Part shown: positions 6,216-29,905 of the stretch, in pieces
How the letters are laid out: every line of letters starts with the position of its first letter
Position numbering within the stretch: the first letter of the stretch is position 1
Source: Trichodesmium erythraeum IMS101
GTDB lineage: Bacteria; Cyanobacteriota; Cyanobacteriia; Cyanobacteriales; Microcoleaceae
NCBI RefSeq assembly: GCF_000014265.1
Contig: NC_008312.1
Location: 5,580,001-5,612,000 of the forward strand
Direction: 5' to 3'
DNA: 32,000 bases
Position numbers and translations under genes: made by a program
Notes under the pieces: generated by a model
What the model was told of the DNA's origin: nothing
Database searches by the model: none
Seen by the model: the letters and a program-made list of their open reading frames with translations, nothing else

Positions 6216-7082
6216 AGTAAAGTTCAAAGAAACGATATTATTACTTCTGTTGAAGCACAGAAGTATTTAGCCTGGGAAGTTGAAGAAATTTGTAAACCTG
6301 CCTTAGAAAGAATACCTACTTGGTCTCAGATGAATCAAAATCAAAAGGGAGCACTTTATAGTTTTGCCTACAACTTGGGTGCAAATTTTTATGGTGGAGC
6401 GAATTTCCAGTCTATTACAAGGGTTTGTGATACTGTTTCTAGGTGGAAAGATCAAGGTTGGATAACAGAGCAATTTGAAAAATATCGAAACCCTGGTTCT
6501 GCTGCTGAAGAGGGTTTGCGGAGACGCAGACATGCTGAAGCTAAACTATTTTGTAAGCCTGCAGAAAATATTGAGTTTCATCAAAATAAAATGGAGGAAA
6601 CAATGGAAATTACTACTGTAAGTTTTACCAATTCAACTTGGTTAAAATCCAAACCTATACAATCTTCAGAATTGTCGAACAATCAGAAGATATTTGTCAG
6701 ACAGGAAGACAAAATCAAGGTAAAGGGAGTATTTCCAGATGCTAAACAACATACTTTACTTACATTAGAAAAGTCAAAATTAGCAGCTGATGGAAAGACC
6801 TCTCTTGAAAAAGTTTATGCTTATACACCTCACCTAAAATTAGAGCAACCACAAAATGAGCGGGTGAAAAAGCTAGATGTGCCTTATTTCTCTCAATTAG
6901 ATAATTCAACTTTGCTTTTTGGTGCAGGAAGTCGCCAGTGTAATTTAACTTCTTGTTCTATGTTCTTAGCGGCTTTAAAGCCACAGTTAGTAAAAGAATC
7001 AAAAATTGATAATTACGAAGAATTTGAAAGTTTTTATGGGGAAAAATTAGTAAAATATGGTGATACCACTAACCATGATGCA
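6216..7082 (+). CDS. Exon 2 of 4: rest of the lysozyme domain, a linker or middle domain, and the N-terminal half of the C39-like peptidase domain
   Basis: In frame with exon 1: ...YPNG|SKVQRNDIITSVEAQKYLAWEVEE...MNQNQKGALYSFAYNLGANF...GLRRRRHAEAKLF (GH24). Later LDVPYFSQLDN...RQCNLTSCSMFLAAL looks like a C39_2-type catalytic Cys region. Length is 867 nt (289 codons). It ends ...NHDA just before GTGCGAC at 7083. Confidence 0.85.
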
Positions 7083-7675
7083 GTGCGACTCGTTGGCCAC
7101 TAAACTAGGAAACTAGGTATACATGGCCGTTCCAAGTCACCACATGAGGACAACCTCGACTTGTGAATAACTCTTATTACCTTGGTGGTGAAATTCCATC
7201 CGCCTTGTTGTTGGGTTGACAGCATAGACCACAGGGTAGCGACTGAACATCAATCCCTGAAGCTGGTCTAAAAGCGGGAAAATACCAGTTACCGAGGAAC
7301 GATACCGCAAGCAAAGGCTGACAAGTGGACGAACAGGAAGGTAATAAAACTCCCGTGAGGTCGAACCATTCCAAAGGTAGCTATGGGATGTAGGACGAAA
7401 GTCAGGGGGTCAACGAACATAAGTATTGCTTTGCTTATGTTAACAATCATATAGCACCCTCCGGGGGAGTTTACCCCACTTAAGTTGGCCGTAATAAAGG
7501 AATAAGGGAACGAGGAAACCTCTTTAAGACACCTAAGTATATAGGTCGAAAACTTAGGAAGCCATTCAAGGTCAATCTGCACAAAGTTGCAGGTCTTGGG
7601 GAGAGTAGGATTGGGTAAGAAGCTCATTGAGCAGACGTACCCACTGTTAGACGTAATGTGGAGTAATAATTAGCA

Positions 7676-9340
7676 ATGAATAAAGCTAAAACCCTAAAAA
7701 GATGTTTGGGAAACCCTAAACCATTTTTAAGCGTGGCGTGGGATACAAACGATATACCAAACCCATGTAGTGTTAATCCTAATTTCAAATGGAAAGACAT
7801 CAATTGGAAGAAGGTAGAAAAGTATGTATTTAAGTTGCAAAAATTAATCTACAGAGCATCCAGCCGTGGCGAAATCCGCAAGGTGCGTAAATACCAAAAA
7901 CTTCTGACCAAAAGTTATTACGCTAGGTTGCTAGCTGTTAGGCGCATAACTCAGGACAATCAGGGTAAGAAAACTGCGGGTATAGATGGTATAAAAAATT
8001 TACCCTCTATGCAGAGATTTAACCTGGTAGACTTATTAAAGAGACATCGCTTCAAAGCAAGCCCAACCCGTAGAGTCTGGATACCAAAACCAGGAAAGGA
8101 TGAAAAGCGACCGCTCGGAATCTCTACAATGTACGACCGTGCATTACAAGCCCTGGTAAAGCTAGGTAGGTCACCAGAATGGGAAGCACACTTTGAACCT
8201 AACAGCTATGGCTTGAGACCAGGACGGTCAACACATGATGCTATTGCAGCAATCTATGTCAGCATCAACAAAAAACCAAAATACGTTCTAGATGCTGACA
8301 TATCCAAATGTTTTGACCGAATTAACCATGATGCGTTGTTGAGAAAAATAGGACGAACACCCTACAGACGCCTAATTAAACAATGGCTCAAATCCGGGGT
8401 ATTCGATAACAAACAATTCTCAGACACTCTGGAAGGTACACCACAGGGAGGGGTGATATCAACCTTACTAGTAAACATCGCCTTACACGGGATGGAAAAA
8501 TGTCTAGAAAAATACGCCGAAACTCTACCGGGTAAAAAGCGTGACAATAAACAGGCATTATCCTTAATACGCTATGCTGACGACTTCGTTATCCTACACG
8601 AAGACATCAAAGTAGTAATGCAGGCAAAAACCGTAATACAGGAATGGTTAAACCAGGTAGGATTAGAGCTAAAGCCAGAAAAAACCAAGATTGCTCACAC
8701 CCTGGAAGAATACGAAGGAAATAAACCCGAATTTGACTTTCTGGGGTTCAACATCAGGCAATATGAAGTTAAGTCAACCAATCAAGGATTCAAAACAATA
8801 ATCAAACCATCATCCAAGAGTGTCAAAACTCATTATCGGAAACTGGCGGATAGATGTGACAAGAACAAAACCGCCCCCGCAAAAGCTTTAATAGCTAAAC
8901 TCAATCCGATAATAAGGGGATGGGCCAATTACTTCTCCGCCATAGTTAGTAAGAGTACATTCAATAAGTTGGATATGCTTTTGTGGAAAAGGCTAGGTCG
9001 ATGGGCAAGTAGGAGGCACTCGAACAAGTCGGCCAAGTGGGTTAAAGAAAAGTATTTCCCTCGCTACAAAGAAACCAGGAACTGGATACTTAATGATGGC
9101 GAATATATACTCAACCAACACCTTGACGTGCCTATAATAAGACACGTCAAAGTGAAAGGTAATAAATCCCCATTAGACGGTAACTGGACTTATTGGAGTA
9201 GTAGAATTGGCAAACATCCAGGCGTAAGGAAAGAAGTCACAACGCTGCTAAAACGGCAGAAAAATAAATGCGCATTTTGTGGGCTAACCTTCAGGTCAAA
9301 CGACCAAATGGGAAGTAGACCATATAAAACCAAGATCTGA
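7676..9340 (+). CDS. Group II intron reverse transcriptase/maturase (IEP). RT and X domains are intact. The C-terminal HNH domain is frameshifted.
   Basis: 554-aa ORF with RT motifs (KTAGIDG, RPLGISTMYDRALQ, PQGGVIS, RYADDFVIL), the maturase/X motif (IRGWANYF) and the start of the HNH domain (CAFCGL). The rest of the HNH domain continues in the +1 frame, from the GGG run at about 9310-9312 to the stop at 9519-9521: EVDHIKPRSEGGDNTYKNKQLLHRHCHD. Confidence 0.9.
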   Translation: MNKAKTLKRCLGNPKPFLSVAWDTNDIPNPCSVNPNFKWKDINWKKVEKYVFKLQKLIYRASSRGEIRKVRKYQKLLTKSYYARLLAVRRITQDNQGKKTAGIDGIKNLPSMQRFNLVDLLKRHRFKASPTRRVWIPKPGKDEKRPLGISTMYDRALQALVKLGRSPEWEAHFEPNSYGLRPGRSTHDAIAAIYVSINKKPKYVLDADISKCFDRINHDALLRKIGRTPYRRLIKQWLKSGVFDNKQFSDTLEGTPQGGVISTLLVNIALHGMEKCLEKYAETLPGKKRDNKQALSLIRYADDFVILHEDIKVVMQAKTVIQEWLNQVGLELKPEKTKIAHTLEEYEGNKPEFDFLGFNIRQYEVKSTNQGFKTIIKPSSKSVKTHYRKLADRCDKNKTAPAKALIAKLNPIIRGWANYFSAIVSKSTFNKLDMLLWKRLGRWASRRHSNKSAKWVKEKYFPRYKETRNWILNDGEYILNQHLDVPIIRHVKVKGNKSPLDGNWTYWSSRIGKHPGVRKEVTTLLKRQKNKCAFCGLTFRSNDQMGSRPYKTKI

Positions 9341-10246: not shown

Positions 10247-11990
10247 GTGATGAATAAAGCTAAAACACTAAAAAGAAAGCCTTGTAATTCAAAGCCCTTT
10301 TTAAGCGTGGCATGGGATACAGATGATATAACGTCCCAAGTGAGTGTCAATCCCAATCTCAAGTGGAAAGACGTTAATTGGAAACGGGCCCTGAAGAATG
10401 TATTTAAGTTGCAAAAGTTAATTTACAGAGCATCCAGCCGTGGCAAAATCCTTAAGATGCGCAAAGACCAAAGGCTTCTGAGCAAAAGTTATTACCTAAG
10501 GTTACTAGCTGTTAGGGGTGTGACTCAGGATAATCAAGGGAAGAAAACTGCGGGTGTAGATGGGATGAAAAAACCTTTCTCCAATGCAGGCATTTAACTT
10601 GGTTGACTTATTAAACACAGGCTACCTTAAAGCAAGTCTCACCCTAGAGTCACCGATACCAAAACTAGGTAAAGATGAAAAACGATCGCTAGGCATCCCA
10701 AGGATGTATGATAGGGGGTTACAACCCTTGATTAAGTTTGGTATGGAACCTTTTGAGGGAGGCACATTTTGAACCTAATAGCAAAGTATGTTCTGGGTGC
10801 TGATATATTTAAGTGTTTTGACTGGATATACTATGATGCACTGCTAAGAAAAATTGGTAGAACATCATATAGATAATTAATCAAAAAATGGTTAATGTCT
10901 GGAGTGTTTGACAACAATTAATTTGACCTACTCCTCTTGTTACCCTCCTAATGAAGGGATGGGGTTGGTTAACCAAAGGTAGGGGTTGTCTGACCTCTAA
11001 AGTGCAAACATAGTCCTACACTTTATGGAATAAAGGCTAATGGAATTTGTCGAAAAACTCCCTCTAAAATATTCAAGTGGGAAAACAGACAAAATGAGAT
11101 TAACGACACAGCCTATCCTTAATAGGCTATCCTGATGACTTTGTAATCCTACATGAGGACATCAAAGTAGTGCTACCAGCAAAAGCCTTAATACAGGAAT
11201 GGTTAAACCAAGTAGGATTATATCTAAGACTAGAAAAAACTAAAATTGCCCACACTCTTGAAGAATATGAAGGGAACAAACCCGGATTTGACTTCCTGGG
11301 TTTCAATCTTAGGTAAGGTCAGGTAAAGACAGCTAAAAATGGATATAAAACTTTGATTTAACCATATGCAAAGAGTATGAAAACTTATTATCGGAAACTA
11401 GCAGATATATGTGACTCTTGTATAACTGTACCAGTTGAAGTTTTAATAGCAAAACTAAATTTGGTAATTAGAGGATGGGCTAACTACTACTCAACCATAG
11501 TCAGTAAAAAGGTATTCCATAAAATGGATATGCTTCTATGGAAACCCATAAGGCACTGGGCAAGGTCGTTGGTATCCAAATAAGAACCACACTTGGGTAA
11601 AGAAAAGGTATTTCCTAAAAATTGAGAATGATAACTAGATTCTTGATACCGGCAAATATATGTTAGATAAACACTCAGATGTACATACTTAGTTGGGCAT
11701 ATTAAGTTAATGGGTAATAAAGCTCCCTATGATGGTGACTGGAATTATTGGAGTACCAGAACAGGTAAATATCCAGGGGTAAGGAAAGAAGTCTCAACGC
11801 TGTTAAAACAGCAAAAGAATAAATGCGCATTTTGTGGATGACACTTTTGACCAACGGATATAATTGAGGCTGACCAAATCATTCCTAGGTCTAAAGGCGG
11901 TAACAACACCTATAAAAATCAACAGGTGTTAGACCTAAATTGCCACGACGTTAAGAGTGCCGAGGATTTAAAAGGAGTTAACCATTAGGA
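10247..11990 (+). pseudogene. Decayed intron-encoded RT/maturase in intron 3
   Basis: Track ORFs 10247-10597, 10584-10772 and 11377-11583 each match successive parts of the 7676 IEP (MMNKAKTLKR..KTAGVDGMK; LGIPRMYDRGLQ; IRGWANYYS). They are separated by frameshifts, stops and a small deletion near 10780. The HNH tail carries stops (CAFCG*HF*PTDIIEADQIIPRSKGGNN). Confidence 0.8.
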
Positions 11991-13047: not shown

Positions 13048-13419
13048 TCAATCGCGCTGAATAGCTAATGATTGTAAAATCCCTTCAGTTTCTTCCAGAG
13101 GACTGAGGCCTTCTCTTAATAAATTTTCTCTCAAAGATAATTGGCAGGCATCCTCATCATTGAGAGAGCGGATAACTACAGGGACAGAAGTTAGTCCAGC
13201 TATTTTTGAAGCTCTTAAACGCCTTTCACCTGCAACCAACTCGTATAAATTGTTGTCGGTAGATCGTGCTAATAATGGTTCAAGTACGCCAAACTGAGAA
13301 ATAGAAGTACTGAGTTGACACAGTGTTTCTTCGTCAAAATAAGGATGTGGTTGAGAGGAAGGTAGAACAATTTTAGCTATGGAGTCTCTTTTTGTCCTAT
13401 TGAATCTTGCTTCTGGACA
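13048..13419 (-). pseudogene. ParB N-terminal-domain gene fragment with no usable start and a truncated C-terminus
   Basis: The open minus-strand frame reads ...IAKIVLPSSQPHPYFDEETLCQLSTSISQFGVLEPLLARSTDNNLYELVAGERRLRASKIAGLTSVPVVIRSLNDEDACQLSLRENLLREGLSPLEE... This is the classic ParB box pattern (GERR.RA). The frame opens right after a stop and ends about 120 codons later, without the HTH or dimerisation domains. Confidence 0.6.
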
Positions 13420-13795: not shown

Positions 13796-13861
13796 AAATT
13801 CTTTTCAGTTAATAGTTAGGCGATCGCTAGCCAAGAAAAAAGGTTAATCAAGGCAGGAGGA

Positions 13862-14625
13862 GGAATAAAAAAGTCTTTCAGCAAGACAGAAGAGATAATG
13901 TTGACCTTATATTATTTGCATCATGTACCAAAATTTCAGCGACTAGGAGCAATATTTGGAGTTAGCTCATCAACAGCAAATAATATTTTTCAGGATTTGG
14001 ATAGATATTTTGAGGTAATTATTACCATCTAGTTTACTAGAGGAATTCTCGGAAAAAGAAAACGAATATTTATGGATAAAAGAGGCTTTGACAGAAATAG
14101 AATTGATAGTTGATAGTATAGAGCAGGATAGGGAAAAGCAAAAAAAAATGATGATAAACAGAAAAAGTATTATTCAGGAAAGCCAAAAATTTATAGGGTT
14201 AAAAATCAAATAGTAATCACAGAAAAGGCAGAAGAAATTATAGATGTAATAGTAGGAAAAAGAGGTCGAGAAGGTGATATAAAGTTATTCAAAAAAACAC
14301 AAAAAAAAGTTTGATATAGAAGAAATACTTCAAAGAGACAAGGGGTATCAATGTGGTCAAAAAATTAACAAGCTAAACAAAAAAAATAAGCCATAAAATG
14401 CCAGAATAAGTAAAGAAATAGAATCAAAAAAAAGATAAAAAAATAATATTTGTAAGATAAAAAAAATAATATTTGTAGAAAAGATTATAAGACTGATAAA
14501 AATATTTATATTGGCACGAGAAAGATTGAGGTTGAAAGAGACTAATTATGACAAGTAATTTTAAAATATATGATTTAGTAAGATGAATAAGAGGAGAATT
14601 TATATTATTATAAATCATAAGTTTT
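13862..14625 (+). pseudogene. IS5-family (DDE_Tnp_4 / Harbinger-like) transposase pseudogene
   Basis: The plus-strand frames read KKSFSKTEEIMLTLYYLHHVPKFQRLGAIFGVSSSTANNIF..., ...IDS**YRAGQ..., KKYYSGKPKIYRVKNQIVI...GKRGREGDIKLF and ...IIFVEKIIRLIKIFILARERLRLK. They follow the order of DDE_Tnp_4 motifs but are interrupted by many stops and A-run frameshifts. Confidence 0.55.
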
Positions 14626-15811: not shown

Positions 15812-17071
15812 ATGCTTAGAATACACAGATTAGTAGAAATATTTCCACCTATGACTCCAGAGGAATTTGAGAGTCTAAAAAAAAGTATTCATCGTAACGG
15901 TCAACAAGTACCTATTAAAGTTTTAAAGTTAACTAATGAAATTATTGATGGAAGACATCGATACCAAGCTTGTCAAGAATTAAATATTGAACCTTTAATT
16001 GAATGGATTGAAGATGATTTGAAAGAAAAAAGGTTACGCTCTCTAGTTGTTAAACTTAATCTGGATCGGAGGCATTTAACACCTTCTCAAAAAGCTTGGA
16101 TTGCTGCTAGTTTTGCTGATTTAGAAAGAGGACAGTTTCATGGAAATAGATATACTGAAACCTTACATTCTAATATCGGCAATTCTGCCAATACTAAACT
16201 ACCTCTAGGGCAAACTCAATCTGCAATTGCTAAATGGTTTGGTTCATCTGAAAGAGCAATTCGACAAGTAAAAAAAATCAGACGTGAAGCTCCTGAATTC
16301 AATAATTATATATATATGGGAGAGGTGAAAATTGATGATGCTTACTGCTTACTATCTGAAGTTCCAGAAGTGAGGCAGCAGGTATTAAAGAGGTTCAATG
16401 AAGACAAATCTTTGAATAAGAAACCAAAAAAGCTTTGCCAATATAAAAATGACATACTTAAAGAACAAGCTCAGTCTAATATAAAGAAGGCGATCGCTAA
16501 TAACTTTTTAATAGAAATATCAGAATCATTGTTAGTACAATTAGGAGAAACTTGGCAACTTGGTAGACATCAATTAAGTTGCTGTGACTCTTCTACATGG
16601 AATCCTCCTTATGCAAAACTAGCCTTTGCCGACCCACCATATAATTGTGGAATAGCAGAATGGGATTTCCATTTTAAATGGAAGCATGACTGGTTAATCA
16701 ACAAAGCTGATTTAGTGTTAGTCACACCAGGGGATGAATCTTTAGCAGGATTCCTCAAAAAAACTGAGATGCCTTATAGATGTACAATTGCTCACTGGAT
16801 AAAAAATGGTATGAGCAAGGGAGCAATGGGCTATGGTAATCATATATTGGGATTAGTATTTTGTAAGGAATCTACTCCTTACAAAGTTACAGGAGTCAGA
16901 AACCAAAGTTTTTCTACTGGTGTAATTAAATTAGACGAGACTAATGAGACTAGTCATCCTGGCAGAAAACCTTTAGATTTTTTAGTAACTTGGATAGAAA
17001 AGTTAACTAAACCAGGGGATTTTATTATTGATCCGTTTTTAGGCAGTGGTACTACTTTATTTGCAGCATAA
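15812..17071 (+). CDS. ParB/Srx-like N-terminal domain fused to an N6/N4 DNA methyltransferase (beta-class motif order). It ends at an in-frame TAA that cuts off the last 34 ancestral codons.
   Basis: N-terminus: EIFPPMTPEEFESLKKSIHRNGQQVPIKV...IIDGRHRYQACQEL...NLDRRHLTPSQKA (ParB-N/Srx-type). C-terminus: motif IV DPPY at 16631-16642, then HPGRKPLDFLVTWIEKL and motif I DPFLGSGTT at 17030-17056. After the TAA (17069-17071) the same frame continues ATNRTCYRVKMSPKYFTEIIGRW... to the TAA at 17174-17176. Confidence 0.8.
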   Translation: MLRIHRLVEIFPPMTPEEFESLKKSIHRNGQQVPIKVLKLTNEIIDGRHRYQACQELNIEPLIEWIEDDLKEKRLRSLVVKLNLDRRHLTPSQKAWIAASFADLERGQFHGNRYTETLHSNIGNSANTKLPLGQTQSAIAKWFGSSERAIRQVKKIRREAPEFNNYIYMGEVKIDDAYCLLSEVPEVRQQVLKRFNEDKSLNKKPKKLCQYKNDILKEQAQSNIKKAIANNFLIEISESLLVQLGETWQLGRHQLSCCDSSTWNPPYAKLAFADPPYNCGIAEWDFHFKWKHDWLINKADLVLVTPGDESLAGFLKKTEMPYRCTIAHWIKNGMSKGAMGYGNHILGLVFCKESTPYKVTGVRNQSFSTGVIKLDETNETSHPGRKPLDFLVTWIEKLTKPGDFIIDPFLGSGTTLFAA

Positions 17072-17272
17072 GCAACTAACAGAACTTGTTATCGAGTAAA
17101 GATGTCTCCTAAGTATTTTACAGAAATAATAGGTAGATGGTTAGTATCAAATAAAGAAAAATCTGTTAGGATTTAACAAATTAAAGTAATCATGTGCTAG
17201 TGTATTTTTACAACTAAATAAGGACTTCAATCTACTCAACAGAAGGATTTAATTAATAACTTCCATCCTAGA

Positions 17273-18328
17273 ATGGAAGAGTTAATGAGAAAAATACAGG
17301 AAAGCAAAGATAAAGATAACATCAGAGAATGTCTCTTACAAAACAAGCATATTTACGAATATAAAGGTGAAGCTAGTGAAGAAGAAGTATTAGGAGTTGA
17401 TGCAGCTACAGCTTTTTGTGACTATGGAGAAATATCAACGGCTTTAGCTACAGGAGTTGTTTCTTCTACTTCAGAAAATGTCAAACCAGTGTATAAATAT
17501 AAAGCTGTTTATGGTACATCTAGTGAAACTTTTTCTAGGGCAACTAATTACTTAAGATGTTGGTCTGAATTAGCTGCATTAAAATATGCTACAGAACAAG
17601 ACACTTGGGTTTTGTATGATGGGAGCTTTACAAGTATTAATTTTGAAATGGGCAAATGGGCATCTGTAATGCCAAAAGAAGGAGATATATCTCGTGATTT
17701 TGTGGAATCAGAACTACTAACTGACTTATTTGTTGAGTCTATTAAAAGTGAAGATTCGGATTGGTTTACAGTATTTGGAGATAGAAAATTAAATAAGGTA
17801 ATTTCAGTTGGGAAAAGAGGGATTAGTAAATACTACTCAACGAATGTAATTAAAGATTTTGAGATAGAAGATACTGCTTTTCTCCCCTCTGATAAATTTA
17901 TTTTAGGCACAGTTTTGCAAGCTAATGAGTATACAAAATCTTTGTCTTATGAGCAAGTATTTGTCAAATCACATGGCTCAGGAACGCCTGGTTATGGTCA
18001 TCCAGGATTAAAGTCTGAAGACCGTTTTAATTCAATGCAAAATGACGTGGAAAGAACATATAAAAATTTACAAATTTTGCATTTTAAACCCTGGCCTTGG
18101 TCGCCTGTTTTGAAGATAGAATATAATAAGGAACGTTGCGAGTTAAATGATGTATTAGCAGTTATAAAAGGGCAAACTAAGACTCGTTCAATTCTTGAAC
18201 CAATGGCTTTGTATTTAGCGGATTTATTAGCTAAACAAACTCAATCAGTAATGAATTTTTATGGTGATATAAATACTCGCCGTTATCCTAAACTATTTTC
18301 AGCATATCGAACATCAAAAAGAGGTTAA
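17273..18328 (+). CDS. NurA-like nuclease (tentative family assignment)
   Basis: 351 aa. The ordered acidic motifs resemble the NurA RNase-H-like fold: LGVDAAT, RCWSELAAL, WVLYDGSFTS and the C-terminal EPMALYLADLLAK. Its stop is 1 nt before the start of the HerA-like gene, the usual nurA-herA arrangement. Confidence 0.55.
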   Translation: MEELMRKIQESKDKDNIRECLLQNKHIYEYKGEASEEEVLGVDAATAFCDYGEISTALATGVVSSTSENVKPVYKYKAVYGTSSETFSRATNYLRCWSELAALKYATEQDTWVLYDGSFTSINFEMGKWASVMPKEGDISRDFVESELLTDLFVESIKSEDSDWFTVFGDRKLNKVISVGKRGISKYYSTNVIKDFEIEDTAFLPSDKFILGTVLQANEYTKSLSYEQVFVKSHGSGTPGYGHPGLKSEDRFNSMQNDVERTYKNLQILHFKPWPWSPVLKIEYNKERCELNDVLAVIKGQTKTRSILEPMALYLADLLAKQTQSVMNFYGDINTRRYPKLFSAYRTSKRG

Positions 18329-18329
18329 A

Positions 18330-20006
18330 ATGACAAACATTGTTGAGATTGCTTCAATCAATAGTTATAAAGGTGGAAAATTAAATGTAACTATTCGTTC
18401 TCAGGCAACCAGAAAGAGCTTAACTGGTAAAATGTGCGAATTTAAAATCGAAACATCAGACCAAGGTACACTTAGAGTATTATGTCGAATCAACTCAGTA
18501 GATATGGCTAACCCTATCCATGAGAATCGTGGTTTTCAACAAGCGATCGCCGATCAAGGCAAACTCCAATATTATTCTGGTGATTGTGATGTAGTAACAG
18601 CAACAGTTGAAATTATTTCATGTATAACAGCAGATAAATTGATACCTACAAGTATTGCTTGTCCTCCACAGTCGGGAACGCCTTTAAGGGAAATAAAAGG
18701 AAATAGTATTATTGACTTTCAACCTGAGAAACAATATAAAGGGACAATTGGAAATTTAATTGATGCACCTGAGATGCCCATGTCAATAACAGTTCGACAC
18801 TTTGGTGCTTATGACAAAGGAGGTTATGGAGAAGCAAAACATAGTGTAGTTTTTGGTCAAAATGGTTCTGGAAAAACTGTTATTGCCTTGGCTAAAATAG
18901 CCTGTGAATTGGTTCAAAATCCGCAAATGGGTTGCTTAATTCCTGATACAGCAGGGGATATTGCTAAACATGGTTCTCATGATAGAGGTGATTTTAAGTT
19001 TAGTTTTTTAGAGTTGCTGGATAAAGGAGGTAGATTAGCCGAACAAATTAATATAGAAGATATTCGTCTAGTTTCCAAAACTTTTTTCAAGCAAATGTTA
19101 ACGCCTATCATCCGACAAAAACTTAATACGATGCCAGATAATGCTACGCGTTTAACAGACAAAATTACCGAAAGCTTATTTGATAAAACAGTTGATATTA
19201 CTAAGGCAACACCTGATGTAATTTTAAACATGATTGTTGAGAATGTAGCGACCGTTTTTTCAACTAAAGCTAAACAAAAGGAAAAAACAGAACAAGCTCA
19301 GGAGCTTACTCAACAACCCCTTAAAAGAGAGTTTATCAAAACTTATAATGCCAACGTCGTTCATTTTTTTGAAGGAAAGTATGCTTTGCCAGAACTCGTT
19401 GATGGTTTTCTTGATAGAGGGCGGGTGATTTTACTCAATATGTCTAAACTATCGGAGCAAGCACAGCGCAGTGTAATGTATGAGATATTTGCTTATGTAA
19501 AATCAAAGTCGGAAAAGGACTATAAAGCTTTTAGTAAAACCCGAAATGGCTTAATTGTTCTTGATGAAGGACCTCGGTGGTGTCCGCAATCAGGTGGAGA
19601 TGAAATAACCAGTACAATAATAGACGCTTACAATACTACCCGAAAGCTGGGTATTGGTTGGATGATTATTTCTCAAAGAATTACTGCTATTGATAAAAAT
19701 ATCTTAGCACAAGCTCATACAAAATTTGTCGGGCGTGGAATGGGTATAGGTGCTGATGCTGAATATATTAGTACTTTATTTGGTAAAGAAGGGTTAGTTA
19801 TGTATGATTCATTAAGACTTAGGGGAGGTTATTTCTGGTTAGCAACAGGACATCAGGTTAACTATGGTCAAGGTTCTCAATATATGGCTTTTGATTCTTT
19901 TGGGGGAAATGCAACAGCTAAGATAATTAAAGCTAATCCTCATATTTGGCAAAATCAAGAAGAGATGTCTTTAGTTGTGGGAAGGGATGATAAAACTTTA
20001 TCCTAA
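18330..20006 (+). CDS. HerA-like (DUF87 / FtsK-HerA superfamily) ATPase
   Basis: 558 aa. The N-terminal region looks like a beta-barrel (HAS-barrel). Walker A, HSVVFGQNGSGKT, lies at 18855-18878. Walker B, LIVLDEGPRW, lies at about 19551-19577. ISQRITAIDKNILAQAHTKFVGR matches the HerA QRP..i...vlsq.. segment. The gene is translationally coupled to the upstream ORF (TAAAATG). Confidence 0.75.
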   Translation: MTNIVEIASINSYKGGKLNVTIRSQATRKSLTGKMCEFKIETSDQGTLRVLCRINSVDMANPIHENRGFQQAIADQGKLQYYSGDCDVVTATVEIISCITADKLIPTSIACPPQSGTPLREIKGNSIIDFQPEKQYKGTIGNLIDAPEMPMSITVRHFGAYDKGGYGEAKHSVVFGQNGSGKTVIALAKIACELVQNPQMGCLIPDTAGDIAKHGSHDRGDFKFSFLELLDKGGRLAEQINIEDIRLVSKTFFKQMLTPIIRQKLNTMPDNATRLTDKITESLFDKTVDITKATPDVILNMIVENVATVFSTKAKQKEKTEQAQELTQQPLKREFIKTYNANVVHFFEGKYALPELVDGFLDRGRVILLNMSKLSEQAQRSVMYEIFAYVKSKSEKDYKAFSKTRNGLIVLDEGPRWCPQSGGDEITSTIIDAYNTTRKLGIGWMIISQRITAIDKNILAQAHTKFVGRGMGIGADAEYISTLFGKEGLVMYDSLRLRGGYFWLATGHQVNYGQGSQYMAFDSFGGNATAKIIKANPHIWQNQEEMSLVVGRDDKTLS

Positions 20007-20691: not shown

Positions 20692-21420
20692 ATGCTACAA
20701 AAAACAAAAAAAGCTGTAGTTACTACAGTTAAAGTTGGTCATATCGAATTTGAAGGCTTAATGCTGCCAAATGGTAGCTATGCAATAGCCATAAGTCAGT
20801 TAGACGCTCTTGGTTTGATCCGACAAAACAAAGCATCAAAAGTTCTGAAAGCTTCGCTAGGAAATAGTTTCCAATTCGACAAAACTATTTCCGAACTAAA
20901 CCCTAGAGCGGTTAATATAATCTCGTTATTGGATTTTGAAAAGCTATTAATCAAGTTAGACAGAAAGGGACATAAACCTGCGCAAGATTTAAGAGATGAG
21001 TTAATTGGTTTATCTTTTAAGCAGGTGTTATCTGAGGCTTTTAGGCAAAAGTTTGAGAAAGATGAGAATCAACAATGGCTCAAAGAGCGTCAAGATGGGA
21101 AATATATGCGACGTACCTTCACTGATTCAATAAAAGACTACATTGAAAATAATCCACAACTATCAAATAACGATAAAACCTGGATATATTCAAATGCTTC
21201 GGATACTCTTAATAAGCTAATGTTTGGGCGAACTGCAAAACAGCTTTGTAAGTCTTATCAATGTAAGAAAGACCAACTTCGTGACCAGTTTGAGCGCAAA
21301 GATATAATAGGCATCCGACGGCTAGAAGAGCATGCAATGAACCTTGTAGATCGTCAAAATGTCCACCCCGTTCAGGCTGTTAAAGAAGCTTTTAGTTTCT
21401 GGGATGGTGCTAGGGTCTGA
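20692..21420 (+). CDS. Phage-associated P63C-domain-like protein (hypothetical)
   Basis: 242-aa intact ORF. The N-terminus VKVGHIEFEGLMLPNGSYAIAISQLDALGL and the central RRTFTDSIKDYI...SNASDTLNKLMFGRTAKQL resemble my memory of P63C-type phage proteins. No search was possible. Confidence 0.4.
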   Translation: MLQKTKKAVVTTVKVGHIEFEGLMLPNGSYAIAISQLDALGLIRQNKASKVLKASLGNSFQFDKTISELNPRAVNIISLLDFEKLLIKLDRKGHKPAQDLRDELIGLSFKQVLSEAFRQKFEKDENQQWLKERQDGKYMRRTFTDSIKDYIENNPQLSNNDKTWIYSNASDTLNKLMFGRTAKQLCKSYQCKKDQLRDQFERKDIIGIRRLEEHAMNLVDRQNVHPVQAVKEAFSFWDGARV

Positions 21421-22598: not shown

Positions 22599-25304
22599 TC
22601 ATAATAAACTATCTCCAAATTCTTCACTAAAAATATCTAACTGCTCCACAGTTATAATTTCTTCCTCTTCTTTTTTATTAATTCCTTTTCGTAAACCAAT
22701 AGCTATTTTGCTATGGTTTTCAATTTGCTGCATTACCTGTCTTGCTCTTGCAATTACTGAATCTGGTAAACCAGCTAATCTTCCCGCTTCAATACCATAA
22801 GACTTATCCGCCCCACCAGGTTGTACTTGATGCAAAAATACAATTTTATCCGGCAATTCTTTCACTGTTACCTGATAGTTTGCCACATTATCCAAAATAG
22901 AAGAAAGTTCATTTAATTCGTGGTAATGAGTAGCAAAAATTGTCCGAGACAAAATTTCCGTTGCCAAATATTCTGCCACTGACCAAGCAATCGAAATTCC
23001 ATCAAAAGTTGCCGTTCCCCTGCCAATTTCATCCAACAAAACCAAAGACTTTTCCGTAGCATGATTCAAAATATTTGCCGTTTCATTCATCTCCACCATA
23101 AAAGTTGATTGACCAGTAGCTAAATCATCCACAGCTCCCACACGAGTAAAGATGCGATCGCTCACCCCTAAAACAGCAGAGCTTGCCGGAACAAAACTGC
23201 CAATTTGTGCCATTAATTGAATCAATCCTACCTGCCGTAAATAACAACTTTTACCACTAGCATTAGGACCAGTTAAAATAATTAAATCCGGCGCCGAATA
23301 GGGAGTAATTCCCGAATTATTTTTCTCTAAATTTTTACTTCCCAATATAGCAGTATTTGGTACAAAAAACCCAGCAGGTAAATATTTTTCTACCACCGGA
23401 TGACGACCTTCAATAATTTTCAATTCTCGGCTATCAACCATAGTAGGACGGACATAATTTTGATAAATTGCTACATCTGCCAAACCACATAAAATATCAA
23501 GAGCTGCCACAGCGCGGGAAACATTTCTAATCTCTTCTGCATATTCCCCTACTTCATTTCTTAAATCAACAAAAATATCATATTCCAGCTCATTCAAATC
23601 ATCTTGTGCCGTTAAAATTCTAACTTCTCTTTCCTTTAATTCCTCAGTAATATAACGCTCCTCATTCGTCAAAGTTTGCTTCCGAGTATAATCATCCGGA
23701 GCCAAATTTGCCTTTGATTTAGAAATACTAATGTAATAACCAAAAGCCTTATTATAACCAACCTTTAAATTAGGAATTCCAGTCCTTTCTCTCTCCGTTG
23801 TCTCCAAAGAAGCAATCCATTTTTGGTCTTCTTCTGCTAACTTCCGCATCTCATCTAATCGTTCATTTATACCAGGGCGAATTAACCCTCCTTCTTTTAA
23901 CTTTTGAGAAGGAGACTCAACTAAATTGGAATGAATTTTTTTTCCCAATTCTTGTAATATTGGTGGTATTTTTTGCAACACCTTTAAATAAGGAGAATTA
24001 CCTTGAGAAACGAAAGTAGAAAGTTCAGGAAGTTTCGTTAAAGAGTCAGCTAAAAAAACTAAATCTCTAGCATTTGCCGTACCAGCACCAGTACGGCCAG
24101 TTAAACGCTCTAAATCGTAAATTTGACGTAATACTCTTTGAATATCTTGACGTAGATCATTATTTTGTATCAGCTCGTCAATAGTATCATGTCTAGCACG
24201 AATACCCTTCAAACTAAGAAGTGGTTGTTGCAACCAACGTCTTAAAGCACGCCCACCCATTGCAGTACTAGTCTTGTCAACTACCGACAACAACGAACCT
24301 TGATAACTACCATCCCGCACCGTTTGAGTAATTTCTAAATTCCGCCGACTCTGGTGATCGAGAATCAAAAAATCTGCCAAAGTATAGCTACGCAAACGTT
24401 GTAAAGGAACTTGATTTTCCTTTTGGGTTTCTTCAAGATATTCCAGTAAACCTCCCGCAGCACGCACCCCCAAAGGAAGACGTTCGCAACCGAGACCTTC
24501 GAGGGATGCCAGTTGAAATTTCATCAACAGTCGCTCCTTTGCCTCCCCCAAACTAAAAGGTTGTTGTGGGCGCAGAGAATAGCAAAAAGAATGAGGGAGA
24601 TATTCCGGTAAATGATCCGATCTTTCTCCTGGCCGTAACATAAAACCTATATCTGGTGCTTTAGTCGGAAATAGCACCTCCGAAGGTTGCAAACGCATTA
24701 ATTCTTGGGTTAGCTGGTCTAAACCTTCAGTTTGAGTCGTGAGAAACTCTCCAGTAGAAATATCCGTGTAAGCAAGTCCCCAATAATTTTTGGCAATAAC
24801 GACTGCAGCTAAATAATTATTGTAGCGTGCTTTCAGCATTCCATCATCGGTAAGAGTGCCGGGAGTAAGGATGCGAGTAATTTCACGCTTGACTTGACGG
24901 TTTTCTTTTTTAGCAATAGCAGAGTCTTCTACTTGATCGCAAACGACCACCGCATAACCTTTTTCTACTAAGAAAGTAGCATATTTTTCTACCGCATGAT
25001 GAGGTACACCAGTCATGGGGACTCTACCAATTTCTTTGCCAGCGTGTTTAGTGGTTTGTACTAGTTCTAATTCTTGCGCGATCGTAACAGCATCCTGAAA
25101 AAAACACTCAAAAAAGTCACCTACTCGAAATAGTAAAAGAGCATGAGAATATTGTTGTTTAACTTCCACATAACGTTGCATCATTTCTGACAGTTTGCTA
25201 ACGTCAATTTTACTATAATCAGCATTAGTAGGAAGAGAATTTTCTAGTTCCTCTTCTTTGGGTTGTGCAGATTTTGGAGTAGATGTAGATGCGGAATATT
25301 TCAT
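22599..25304 (-). CDS. mutS: DNA mismatch repair protein MutS
   Basis: 901-aa ORF. The N-terminal mismatch-binding region has [16 protein letters not shown]. Walker A is [22 protein letters not shown] and [15 protein letters not shown] motifs are present, and the C-terminus has an HTH region. Confidence 0.95.
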
Positions 25305-28745: not shown

Positions 28746-29231
28746 TTAGCTTAAACCTGAGCATATATAGTCAAAGTAAACACCCATTTCCCTGCCAGCA
28801 TCAGGACCAACTAAACTAGCAGTAACTTCCTTCATAGCTTGAATAGCCTGCACTGTAGCACCAATGGGTACACCCAGAGAATTATAAGTTTCTTTTAGAC
28901 CATTTAATACGCGCTCGTCTAAAATAGAGGGGTCTCCTGCCAGCATAGCATAAGTAGCATAACGTAGATAATAATCCAAGTCACGAATGCAAGCAGCATA
29001 ACGACGGGTAGTATACATATTACCACCAGGACGAGTAATATCAGAGTAAAGTAGAGCTTTGGCTACAGCGTCCTTAACTATACCTGCAGCATTAGCGCTA
29101 ATAGTAGTTGCAGCTCGAACCCTTAATTGGCCTGTTTGAAAGTAGCTAGAAAGTCTACCTAGAGCATCATTATCAAGGTATTTACCTTGAACGTCAGAAG
29201 AATTGATAACCGCGGTAATTGCGTCTTGCAT
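28746..29231 (-). CDS. apcB: Allophycocyanin beta subunit
   Basis: 161 aa. [20 protein letters not shown]... with the chromophore-site region [16 protein letters not shown] and the C-terminus [10 protein letters not shown]. Confidence 0.95.
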
Positions 29232-29371
29232 TGTTGATTGATTTCCTTAAAATTACTGAATCTGGAAAATTATTAAATAATTAAAGGCCATGAATTTAGA
29301 TGTTTAATCATAGACTTAAACTTGATATTTCAGGAAGTTTTAAATTGTTCAAATATTCCTTGATCATCAAA

Positions 29372-29405
29372 TTTTATCTAACATCTATTTTTATCTAACA
29401 TCTAT
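29372..29405. repeat. Perfect 17-bp tandem duplication in the apcA-apcB spacer
   Basis: TTTTATCTAACATCTAT occurs at 29372-29388 and again immediately at 29389-29405. Confidence 0.9.
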
Positions 29406-29419
29406 AAAGATATTTAGCC

Positions 29420-29905
29420 TTAACTCATAGCACCGATAACATAGTCAAAGTAAGTAGCAGCTTCGCTACCTGCTTCATAATCTAAAAGTGAACAAGTGAC
29501 AGTTTTCATGCAACGAACACCTTCAGCAACAGCTTCAATAGGAGTTCCTAAAGACTTATACATTTCACGAACGCCTACAAGTCCGATCTCTTCAATAGGA
29601 GTAACATCACCAGAGACAATACCGTAAGAAATTAAACGCAAATAATAATCAAGATCCCGTAAACAAGTAGCAGTCATCTCTTCACCGTAGGCATTACCAC
29701 CAGGAGAGACAACATCCGGACGCTTTTGGAATAGTTGTTGACCAGCTTCCTTAATAATTTTCTCACGAGATTCAGTCATAACTTGAGCAATCCTAACACG
29801 GGTTTCTCCAGCCTTGACAAAGTCTTTGATTCTCTCTAATTCACCGGGACTCAAATAACGAGCCTCGGCATCTGCATTAACAATTGATTTAGTAACAATA
29901 CTCAT
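29420..29905 (-). CDS. apcA: Allophycocyanin alpha subunit
   Basis: 161 aa. [27 protein letters not shown]... with [17 protein letters not shown] and the C-terminus [10 protein letters not shown]. Confidence 0.95.

Follow-up and report, generated by a model that had tools for sequence, protein, structure and literature searches.

NurA and HerA form end-resection complexes in archaea and Deinococcus. The TdpABC system of thermophiles (An et al. 2025, Nat Chem Biol 21:1160) is reportedly phosphorothioate-based, with the modification coupled to a HerA-like/NurA-like nuclease. ParB-fused DNA methyltransferases carried by phages and plasmids are usually solitary anti-restriction enzymes. In ICEth1 of Thermus thermophilus HB27, a NurA-like gene, the HerA-like tdtA, and a PF01555 methylase gene are co-transcribed (Blesa et al. 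2017, PMC5365140; PMC7767461), and DNA donation (transjugation) depends on both TdtA and its NurA-like partner, the methylase being nearly dispensable (PMC5365140, PMC7767461). The initial annotation of the locus studied here knew of no described system in which NurA–HerA is paired with a dedicated ParB-domain methyltransferase; as a statement on methylases in general this is wrong, as the ICEth1 operon shows. TdpABC already links a DNA modification to such a pair, and the two precedents weaken the novelty of the pairing.

The locus lies in a window of 32,000 nucleotides of the Trichodesmium erythraeum IMS101 genome. Three co-directional open reading frames (Tery_3640–3642, positions 15812–20006 of the window) encode, in turn, a beta-class DPPY methyltransferase fused to a ParB/Noc-like domain, a nuclease that is a divergent NurA, and a HerA ATPase of full length. 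They were found exactly where the initial annotation had placed them, and its assignments for all three products hold by profile search, Foldseek, or both. A single base separates the stop codon of gene 2 from the ATG of gene 3, which is preceded 6–9 nt upstream by GAGG. The AT-rich flanks noted earlier are real, as are a ParB fragment (13051–13419) and transposase relics (13820–14311); a phage-type regulator ORF and a fragmentary lysozyme also occur in the window. The trio is best read as the relic of a mobile, modification-linked NurA–HerA cassette.

Gene 1 (Tery_3640; 15812..17071, forward strand; 419 aa) joins a ParB/Noc-like N-terminal domain, which contains the DGRHR motif, to an N6/N4 DNA methyltransferase of the beta class in which DPPY precedes FLGSGTT. 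It matched the Pfam N6_N4_Mtase model at 44.9 bits (cutoff of 26.7); the ParB_N match was weak in Pfam (E 0.0047) and clearer with NCBIfam parB_part (1.7e-9). The family profile of gene 1 matched MboIIA, CcrM, DpnA, and PvuII, and its N-terminal portion (20–183) matched Noc. Gene 1 also matched phrog_498 (3.8e-27) and ParB-like phrogs. The methylase family shows no variation in its catalytic motifs, DPPY and FLGSGTT, or in the residues past motif I, which argues for real methyl transfer.

Gene 2 (Tery_3641; 17273..18328, forward strand; 351 aa) gave no match in direct searches of Pfam, PDB, PADLOC, and PHROG. Its AlphaFold model (pLDDT 82), however, returned NurA structures as all of its top ten Foldseek matches (E 1.5e-9 to 5e-8), the family profile matched Pyrococcus furiosus NurA at 1.2e-6, and 32 of the 52 members of the wider family matched the Pfam NurA model. 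The catalytic residues D51, E105, and D126 of PfNurA align with D43, E99, and D116 of gene 2. Seven residues of the family are invariant over 52 divergent relatives, and the core of gene 2 retains D43, E99, D116, K181, E219, E309, and D317; a near-invariant proline at position 223 is replaced by serine. By its fold, profile match, and conserved D43/E99/D116, gene 2 is a NurA nuclease. Gene 3 (ABG52707; 18330..20006, forward strand; 558 aa) is an intact ORF for a HerA-family ATPase that has a beta-barrel at its N-terminus, a helical insert, and the Walker motifs A (GQNGSGKT) and B (LIVLDEG); its model (pLDDT 89.7) has HerA proteins as the top Foldseek matches, from 4e-23.

The initial annotation had presented the trio as a candidate defence cassette and missed two lesions, which were located using an intact relative, 98% identical (L013), as the reference. 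Gene 1 ends at a premature in-frame TAA at codon 420 (17069..17071, forward strand), where both copies of this segment in L013 have GAA (Glu420). The 34 codons and old stop that follow (17072..17176, forward strand) are still in frame and would encode the post-motif I region; ten family-invariant methylase residues lie beyond the TAA. Compared with L013, this dead tail has seven nonsynonymous changes and one synonymous change, and family-invariant residues are altered at three sites (G428R, E430K, and C436F). The second lesion is a deletion of 610 bp relative to L013, with a junction of short microhomology at 17239..17246 (forward strand); it removed the duplicated 3′ segment of the methylase, a spacer with a GGAGG ribosome-binding site, and the NurA start codon with approximately 17 codons. 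Gene 2 has therefore lost its native 5′ end, and its product has 351 aa compared with 376–385 aa in relatives. Both lesions also occur at the same locus of another Trichodesmium (L014), which is degraded further than the IMS101 copy. At another locus (L012), NurA is without its N-terminal catalytic part, and the methylase and HerA are intact. With a nonsense codon in the methylase gene and the start of the nuclease lost, the cassette is very probably non-functional in IMS101; this copy is a decaying relic and thus no working defence system as it stands.

The co-occurrence of the three families extends well beyond IMS101, to approximately 11 distinct genomic contexts and two gene orders: methylase–NurA–HerA (L001–L008, L010–L013, L028, and L029) and NurA–HerA–methylase (L015, L016, and L030). 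Over the 11 loci compared, the pairwise identities obtained for each of the three proteins are correlated with one another (r 0.94–0.99), and the DPPY, FLGSGTT, Walker A/B, and NurA motifs are retained in nearly all; the NurA motif patterns were unmatched in the two most divergent loci (L015 and L016). The settings are mixed, and trios that stand alone occur in unrelated surroundings. L005 is Tn7-like cargo adjoining Dam and GmrSD; L003 lies on a plasmid that also bears Mrr, integrases, and AIPR; L011 follows a pair of tyrosine recombinases; L015 has TIR-KAP and NACHT genes as neighbours; and L001, L002, L007, and L012 lie among ordinary chromosomal genes. The L002 trio, from Nostoc sp. PCC 9305, is intact. 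Some loci have the look of cargo tied to defence or to mobile elements, but L016 and L030 are prophage-like and lie in prophage early regions, as does the next most related clade (L017, L018, and L115–L117). Neighbours in these seven loci include ERF, RecT, Gp157, DUF1376, YqaJ/Sak, and terminase genes. The phage-borne relatives sit after a cro-like switch and upstream of terminase; phage replication genes are normally placed after such a switch. The trio is unclassified in PADLOC 2.0, which has no model for NurA of the gene 2 type.

The component that accompanies NurA–HerA varies among relatives, being a ParB-methylase, a gamma-like methylase, DruA (GNAT-like), or a protein of 123–131 aa. In a larger sister clade, DruA, the signature protein of Druantia, takes the place of the methylase. 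In four more distant loci (L017, L018, L033, and L116), NurA–HerA is followed by a methylase of a different class, with motif I before DPPY and without a ParB domain, so the methylase link is recurrent; no methylase was present in L115 and L117.

The identities of the domains, the joint inheritance of the three genes, their mobility, and the damage to this copy are shown by these data. We tentatively favor the joint reading that the IMS101 trio descends from a mobile three-gene cassette, known mainly from filamentous cyanobacteria, and is now decaying, and that the ancestral role was, most likely, modification-linked DNA degradation in conflicts among mobile elements, phages, and hosts. In intact copies, the NurA-type nuclease and the HerA-type hexameric ATPase would be expected to form the usual complex, with the HerA motor feeding double-stranded DNA into NurA. 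The ParB-fused amino-methyltransferase is a dedicated third gene inherited with this pair, its ParB-like domain probably aiding loading on or travel along DNA. Under the restriction-modification-like logic that we infer, methylation would label the carrier's DNA as self, and NurA–HerA would degrade unlabelled DNA in which ends or nicks are accessible; the complex, the target of the methylase, the protection of self DNA that methylation would give, and any action against phages are predicted features. Two considerations count against this role: NurA–HerA is not known to sense methylated bases, and host DNA, being circular, requires no shielding from an end-dependent nuclease. The prophage early-region loci and the Thermus operon of the same three families, which serves DNA donation, also speak against a defence reading. 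A candidate defence role for the cassette is plausible.

The Thermus operon, in which donation needs TdtA and NurA but hardly the methylase, points to a serious though less likely alternative, in which the trio would process DNA on behalf of a mobile element or phage instead of serving defence. NurA–HerA would then cut and pump or resect element or host DNA for transfer, replication, or recombination, the methylase would be a ride-along anti-restriction or element-marking enzyme, and the IMS101 copy would be an element remnant. The replication-gene position of the phage-borne relatives, the prophage-like L016 and L030, and the ParB and lysozyme fragments, transposase relics, and phage-type regulator ORF in the window are consistent with this. 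However, in at least eight cyanobacterial contexts just these three genes are present, with no phage gene and no gene for conjugation or replication within 10 kb, which is unexpected for part of a larger machine; L115 (RecT) and L116 (YqaJ exonuclease and Sak) already encode their own recombination genes; and searches of 50,697 isolate phage genomes returned no match and those of 72,556 plasmids only two remote ones.

That the third component is exchangeable, with DruA as a parallel in the sister clade, would also suit a sensing arrangement, in which the ParB-methylase is a DNA-binding or sensing subunit recruiting or licensing NurA–HerA rather than marking self. ParB-like domains are also associated with further systems of DNA modification or defence, among them DndB, DpdB, and GmrSD (PMC10853773, PMC12839542). 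The family-invariant methylase residues argue for catalysis instead, and we consider this arrangement improbable. Least credible is cellular double-strand-break end resection with the methylase as an unrelated neighbor, despite archaeal HerA–NurA complexes and Deinococcus HerA being among the best structural matches: the gene lists examined for the trio loci showed no mre11 or rad50, the genes are patchily distributed and mobile rather than core-genome, the methylase has diverged in step with the pair and kept its place through the change in gene order, and Trichodesmium populations freely lose the trio genes.

Among described systems, the tdtA operon shares with the window a NurA-family nuclease, a HerA/FtsK-family hexameric ATPase, and an N4/N6 methylase (PF01555, ~410 aa), a likeness at the level of protein families, and its genes are likewise tightly spaced or overlapping on a mobile element. 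Its order of NurA–HerA–methylase is that of L015, L016, L030, L017, and L018, whereas the window copy and those nearest to it start with the methylase. The operon begins with the type IIG restriction-methylation enzyme Tth111II, which has no counterpart in the window trio, and its methylase is described only as a pfam01555 member, with no ParB domain mentioned, whereas that of the window is a ParB fusion. TdpABC likewise combines one DNA-modification gene with TdpA, which is a HerA-like hexamer, and TdpB, its NurA-like partner (PDB 8wet, 8wfd). TdpA gave the highest TM-scores to gene 3 among the matches listed (0.63, E 3e-17), and TdpB matched gene 2 significantly in the structure search (E 7.8e-5); by sequence, the relationship is distant (profile E 7e-4), and TdpC mediates backbone phosphorothioation rather than base methylation by a ParB-fused beta-class enzyme. 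The archaeal and Deinococcus proteins (PDB 9x1m, 2ygk, 3tai, 4d2i, 7wrx, and 7f6d) share the folds of both partners, the D-E-D residues of NurA, the barrel and Walker motifs of HerA, and adjacent, apparently translationally coupled genes, but identity is ~10–16%, and the window cassette is mobile and patchy, with a dedicated methylase and without mre11/rad50 linkage. The HerA proteins of the anti-phage systems Sir2-HerA and DUF4297-HerA were the strongest sequence-profile matches (9c1m, 1.4e-14; 8wiv, 3.8e-11); these systems also pair a HerA-family ATPase with an adjacently encoded effector, which is Sir2 or DUF4297/Cap4-like rather than NurA, and have no modification gene. Phage and plasmid ParB-fused methyltransferases (PHROG 498, 67, and 4715) have the same fusion architecture as gene 1, whereas the window-type fusion co-diverges with a NurA–HerA pair.

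The three ORFs that the initial annotation had placed in one co-directional cassette were recovered at 15812-17071 (gene 1, methylase, Tery_3640), 17273-18328 (gene 2, NurA, Tery_3641), and 18330-20006 (gene 3, HerA, the gene after Tery_3641), all on the + strand. Their products were exact matches of ABG52705-ABG52707, and the MutS protein of the window was an exact match of ABG52710. The stop codon of gene 2 and the ATG of gene 3 were one base apart, with GAGG just 5' of this ATG. The 1-nt spacing fits translational coupling, and it was the sole hint for the predicted binding of a HerA hexamer to a NurA dimer.

Gene 1 matched Pfam N6_N4_Mtase (PF01555) with 44.9 bits (cutoff of 26.7). As DPPY (motif IV, near residue 275) precedes FLGSGTT (motif I, residues 409-415), the proposed assignment to the beta class of methyltransferases was retained. 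A profile built from 12 family members matched MboIIA at 1e-16, and also CcrM, DpnA, RsrI, and PvuII. The ParB-type domain proposed for the N-terminus was only partly borne out. The match to NCBIfam parB_part had an E-value of 1.7e-9, yet it was under the cutoff of that model, and the match to Pfam ParB_N was weak (E-value of 0.0047, 17.4 bits, below the cutoff of 26.3). Several ParB-like PHROGs matched gene 1, and positions 20-183 of the family profile matched the ParB-family protein Noc (7ng0) at 1.6e-4. When 11 loci were compared, nine had a DGRHR motif (DGxHR-type), and L015 and L016 did not show this pattern.

Direct sequence searches with gene 2 gave no match in PDB, Pfam, NCBIfam, PHROGs, or PADLOC, a narrow 20-sequence profile gave no match in PDB, and a fold search in BFVD returned generic RNase H matches only. 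Among 5.8 billion clustered proteins, 22 close homologues were retrieved, and the named ones were all cyanobacterial. The AlphaFold (AF2) model built on the homologue alignment (pLDDT of 82, pTM of 0.83) was compared with PDB using Foldseek, and the ten best matches were all NurA (E-values of 1.5e-9 to 5e-8, TM of about 0.5). The best were Thermococcus HerA-NurA (9x1m_G), Sulfolobus NurA, and Pyrococcus NurA, with 2ygk and 3tai/3tal/3taz included, and the list continued after NurA with Endonuclease V (EndoV) and TdpB. The family was widened by a full-database profile search to 141 representatives, 52 of which were aligned. Of these 52 relatives, 32 each matched Pfam NurA (PF09376) as single sequences (best E-value of 8e-14), and the widened profile matched Pyrococcus NurA (PfNurA, 3tai) at 1.2e-6. 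In the profile alignment, D43, E99, and D116 of the window protein were aligned to the catalytic D51, E105, and D126 of PfNurA, whose numbering was corrected for the 20-residue tag in 3tai. D43, D116, K181, E219, E309, D317, and R346 were invariant in all 52 relatives, and E99 was at least 90% conserved. UniRef names Tery_3641 a 'NurA domain-containing protein'. Given the matches to the RNase H-like NurA fold, the family profile matches, and the aligned catalytic D-E-D, gene 2 is, as judged from the predicted structure and the profiles, a divergent NurA, as the initial annotation had proposed.

The HerA assignment of gene 3 was modestly backed by the sequence of the single protein and was upheld by a family profile and the predicted structure. 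The single protein was under the cutoff for Pfam DUF87 (PF01935; 21.2 bits, cutoff of 23.2) and matched NCBIfam HerA at 1.2e-7 and PADLOC HerA at 1.2e-10, while a 30-member profile reached the HerA chains in PDB (1.4e-14 to 6.6e-9). In the AF2 model (pLDDT of 89.7), residues 6-154 were all beta-strand, and a RecA-like core carrying a helical insert came next. Foldseek matches covered the full length (~540-650 aligned columns) and came from Thermococcus (9x1m_A, 4e-23), Sulfolobus (4d2i, 7e-21), and Deinococcus (7wrx, 8e-21); the HerA proteins of DUF4297 and Sir2 systems and TdpA (TM of 0.63) were also matched. Walker A (GQNGSGKT) and Walker B (LIVLDEG) were intact and were kept in all 11 loci.

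Co-occurrence of the three families beyond IMS101, which the initial annotation had set as a test, was observed in about 11 distinct neighbourhoods with two gene orders. The order methylase-NurA-HerA was found in a Hapalosiphonaceae cyanobacterium, Nostoc PCC 9305, another Nostoc, a Nodularia plasmid, Chroococcidiopsis, several metagenomic cyanobacterial contigs, and other Trichodesmium. The order NurA-HerA-methylase was found in Leptolyngbya sp. Heron Island J and two metagenomic loci (L016 and L030), and their methylases belong to the gene 1 family. When identities were compared pairwise over 11 loci, those of the three proteins were strongly correlated (r of 0.94-0.99). The modification and nuclease genes were inherited together in about 11 contexts. 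The catalytic motifs of all three proteins were kept in nearly all 11 loci; the NurA motif patterns were not matched in L015 and L016, which are the most divergent of the 11. On these sequence comparisons, the three genes are a real, mobile, and co-evolving unit. In L005, the Tn7-like cargo copy, an extra ORF of 205 aa (11202-11819) was located between NurA and HerA, as was also the case in L006; it had no Pfam match on record and no PADLOC match.

The initial annotation had regarded it as evidence against a defence role if the trio were always found within prophage or conjugation modules. The contexts of the trio were instead mixed, comprising defence- or mobile-element-like, plain chromosomal, and prophage settings. 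The cassette was Tn7-like cargo between Dam and GmrSD in L005, was carried by a plasmid with Mrr, integrases, and AIPR in L003, directly followed two tyrosine recombinases and DUF6262 in L011, adjoined an ISL3 transposase in L007, and lay amid TIR-KAP and NACHT genes in L015. Three loci (L001, L002, and L012) were surrounded by ordinary chromosomal genes. Phage-type settings were found for L016 and L030, which were prophage-like, and for an intermediate clade of relatives described below. Embedding of this kind was not consistent, although these loci leave the objection some weight. None of 50,697 isolate phage genomes gave a match in tblastn with HerA, two remote matches were obtained among 72,556 plasmids, and a repeated IMG/VR scan added no contigs.

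The AT-rich flanks, the parB fragment, and the transposase relics that had been noted near the cassette were all found again. The GC content was 0.24-0.29 at 14-16 kb, compared with ~0.35 within the genes. A chromosomal-type ParB fragment of 123 aa with a GERRLRA box was encoded at 13051-13419 (- strand), and a 63-aa ORF inside it matched ParB_N at 1.5e-10. Broken DDE-transposase-like pieces were present at 13820-14311 (+ strand) and a lysozyme fragment at 6330-7103; together with the ParB fragment, they suggest that remains of a mobile element surround the cassette. At 7676-9340 (+ strand), the ORF of a group II intron reverse transcriptase/maturase (RVT_N, RVT_1, and GIIM) was complete, with a second, truncated RVT_N fragment ~1 kb downstream (10247-10597, + strand). 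An ORF of 242 aa 3' of the cassette (20692-21420, + strand) matched the PADLOC candidate PDC-S22 at 2e-12 and phrog_2657 ('transcriptional regulator') at 1.4e-16. It was conserved in Trichodesmium loci only and was deleted in L014, the same locus in another Trichodesmium; it was rejected as a member of the conserved unit owing to this restriction to Trichodesmium.

Across the window (1-32000), the coding density was very low, with a handful of ORFs of at least 70 aa, and the intact housekeeping genes, such as mutS (22599-25304) and two phycobilisome genes (28746-29905), were set apart by long non-coding or pseudogenised stretches. Such a low density agrees with earlier accounts of the Trichodesmium genome. 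A promoter and terminator scan gave site numbers no higher than in shuffled sequence and so carried no information.

The IMS101 copy was compared with L013, a 98%-identical intact Trichodesmium relative from a marine metagenome. The gene 1 ORF closes at an in-frame TAA (17069-17071, codon 420), and the same frame runs 34 codons further, which the initial annotation had overlooked. The L013 codon at this site is GAA; its methylase has 454 aa, and all other homologues have 454-473 aa. Ten family-invariant residues (A419 to W443) were at or beyond the stop codon, and three invariant residues were replaced in the dead tail (G428R, E430K, and C436F). Nonsynonymous and synonymous changes relative to L013 were 7:1 in the tail and 6.5:4.5 before the stop. 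The catalytic domain of gene 1 was therefore incomplete, the region after motif I being cut off by the stop. Given the known features of the AdoMet-binding fold, the loss of this region very probably leaves the truncated enzyme inactive.

The relatives of gene 2 have 376-385 aa and start with a conserved N-terminal segment that is missing in the window. Relative to L013, the window carried a 610-bp deletion with short microhomology at the junction (17239-17246), which took away a duplicated methylase 3' segment, the spacer including the GGAGG ribosome-binding site, and the start of NurA with ~17 codons. Gene 2 was thus incomplete, with ~25-27 conserved N-terminal residues deleted. The rest of the gene showed 12 nonsynonymous and 0 synonymous changes, and the near-invariant Pro223 was lost. 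The gene 3 ORF was complete, with only 2 nonsynonymous and 3 synonymous changes. The IMS101 copy of the cassette is very probably dead.

Three stages of decay were observed for this locus in Trichodesmium populations. L013 represents the intact stage, save that the 3' end of its methylase is duplicated in tandem; the IMS101 window represents a stage with the methylase nonsense codon and the NurA 5' deletion; and L014, at the same site adjoining mutS, has both IMS101 lesions, more methylase stops, and a herA that is mostly gone. As both lesions are present in L014, it gives no order for the two. The duplication in L013 (507 bp, 1035-2050) comprises the methylase 3' end and the spacer with its ribosome-binding site and creates a methylase-fragment ORF of 116 aa. 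The single copy of this segment in L014 has variants typical of the second L013 repeat, which suggests recombination between repeat copies. A Trichodesmium MAG (L009, 3736-4389) has a second NurA that is more divergent (66% identical) and is broken into two ORF fragments; it appears to be another decaying family copy in the genus. In a Chroococcidiopsis MAG (L012, 8479-12404), the methylase (462 aa) and HerA (543 aa) were intact, and NurA (241 aa) was without its N-terminal catalytic region. This is an independent NurA loss at the methylase-NurA junction. Loss of NurA with the methylase kept would be tolerable for a restriction-modification-like module; with so few cases, the pattern proves nothing.

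Two further groups of NurA-HerA pairs were retrieved. The intermediate clade (L017, L018/L019, L033, and L115-L117) has HerA proteins with 33-45% identity. A methylase was located 3' of HerA in L017, L018, L033, and L116, and a 123-131-aa ORF took its place after HerA in L115 and L117. This PF01555 methylase belongs to another, gamma-like class: its motif I precedes DPPY, and it lacks a ParB domain. The clade sits in temperate-phage early regions, after a cro-like switch and upstream of the terminase, with DUF1376, ERF, RecT/Gp157, or YqaJ/Sak as neighbours. In these operons, none of the annotated genes was recognised as a conventional replication gene.

The larger sister clade comprised at least 552 metagenomic matches, with HerA about 24-27% identical and without a gene 1-type methylase. 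This family includes L020-L026 and L038-L106, for example L022 (5548-9737). A DruA/DUF4338 gene was found beside the pair in 46 of the sampled loci, usually directly upstream of NurA. The PADLOC DruA1 model matched one sister-clade example at 6e-112. A published interpretation sees DUF4338 as GNAT-like (PMC10853773), and no description of a DruA-NurA-HerA module was found in the literature. As DruA occurs beside the sister-clade pairs in place of the methylase, the third position beside NurA-HerA is exchangeable. That DruA, the signature protein of Druantia, accompanies these pairs circumstantially supports a role in conflict for the whole NurA-HerA lineage. Large PF01555 methylases just downstream of some sister pairs were considered as partners and rejected; they probably belong to neighbouring restriction-modification systems, given that the only one checked (L048) was a type III methyltransferase in PADLOC.

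The most likely ancestral function of the trio, held tentatively, is DNA degradation that is linked to modification and carried out by NurA-HerA as a machine; the joint inheritance of the modification and nuclease genes and the defence-like settings of several loci are consistent with it. A serious rival, somewhat improbable in our view, is that mobile elements and phages use the trio as a module for DNA processing or transfer and that the methylase rides along. The phage early regions of the intermediate clade and the prophage-like settings of L016 and L030 are compatible with such a module, as is the integrative element ICEth1 of Thermus thermophilus HB27, in which DNA donation in transjugation requires the HerA-like TdtA and the NurA-like protein (PMC5365140) and loss of the putative methylase had only minor effects on transfer (PMC7767461).

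For intact cassettes, modification-linked degradation could be taken further, to a new class of modification-dependent immunity, which we consider unlikely. Here, a ParB-type nucleotide-driven clamp would carry the methyltransferase along the carrier DNA to place a self mark, and a processive NurA-HerA shredder would destroy DNA without the methyl mark. The same effector would be reused with DruA or gamma-like methylases as other third components, within a family of defence systems that is far larger and unclassified.

If intact cassettes restrict unmethylated DNA, the ancient NurA-HerA end-resection machine would have been recruited more than once as an effector of modification-based immunity, the cases being methylation (the trio) and phosphorothioation (Tdp), and the widespread ParB-methylase fusion would gain a defined partner. 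The analysis links three topics usually kept apart, namely the Thermus transjugation genes, the NurA-HerA pairs of phage early regions, and the DruA-NurA-HerA family, and suggests one exchangeable nuclease-motor module moving between mobile elements and host defence. The Trichodesmium locus adds a further case of genome-typical gene decay, with three stages in natural populations.

Among classified systems, PADLOC 2.0 contained no model for the NurA partner and did not classify the trio, a question the initial annotation had raised; gene 3 matched HerA and, at its ATPase core only, mad8 (4e-17). Membership in MADS was rejected, as no other mad gene was matched and MAD6-8 (mad6, mad7, and mad8) are mandatory in the detection model of its authors. 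Membership in Druantia, which calls for DruA or DruE, was not supported; DruA was found only beside sister-clade pairs and in no methylase trio locus.

The novelty premise of the initial annotation did not hold, because the ICEth1 operon already pairs NurA-HerA with a methylase. This operon has four co-transcribed genes, encoding a type IIG restriction-methylation enzyme (first), a NurA-like protein of 377 aa, the HerA-like hexameric ATPase TdtA of 568 aa, and a PF01555 methylase of 410 aa that overlaps tdtA by 4 bp (PMC5365140). Judged by architecture alone, the likeness is close: NurA-like, HerA-like, and PF01555 methylase genes are co-directional, tightly spaced, and carried by a mobile element. 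The gene order of ICEth1 is that of L015, L016, and L030 and is permuted in the window. In contrast to the Thermus operon, which is headed by the type IIG gene, no large restriction gene precedes any trio. No Thermus entry was present in the cluster look-up of the NurA representatives, and a homologue search gave unnamed metagenomic proteins only. In TdpABC of thermophiles, one DNA-modification gene (phosphorothioation) is coupled to TdpA and TdpB (PMC12914056 and the reference in PMC13223576). In structure, TdpA is related to gene 3 and TdpB to gene 2, whereas the modification enzyme TdpC phosphorothioates and gene 1 of the trio encodes an AdoMet-type methyltransferase. Among known systems, the ICEth1 tdtA operon and, at the level of concept, TdpABC already exemplify the type to which the trio belongs; new in the trio are its ParB-fused methylase, its cyanobacterial clade, and its methylase-first order.
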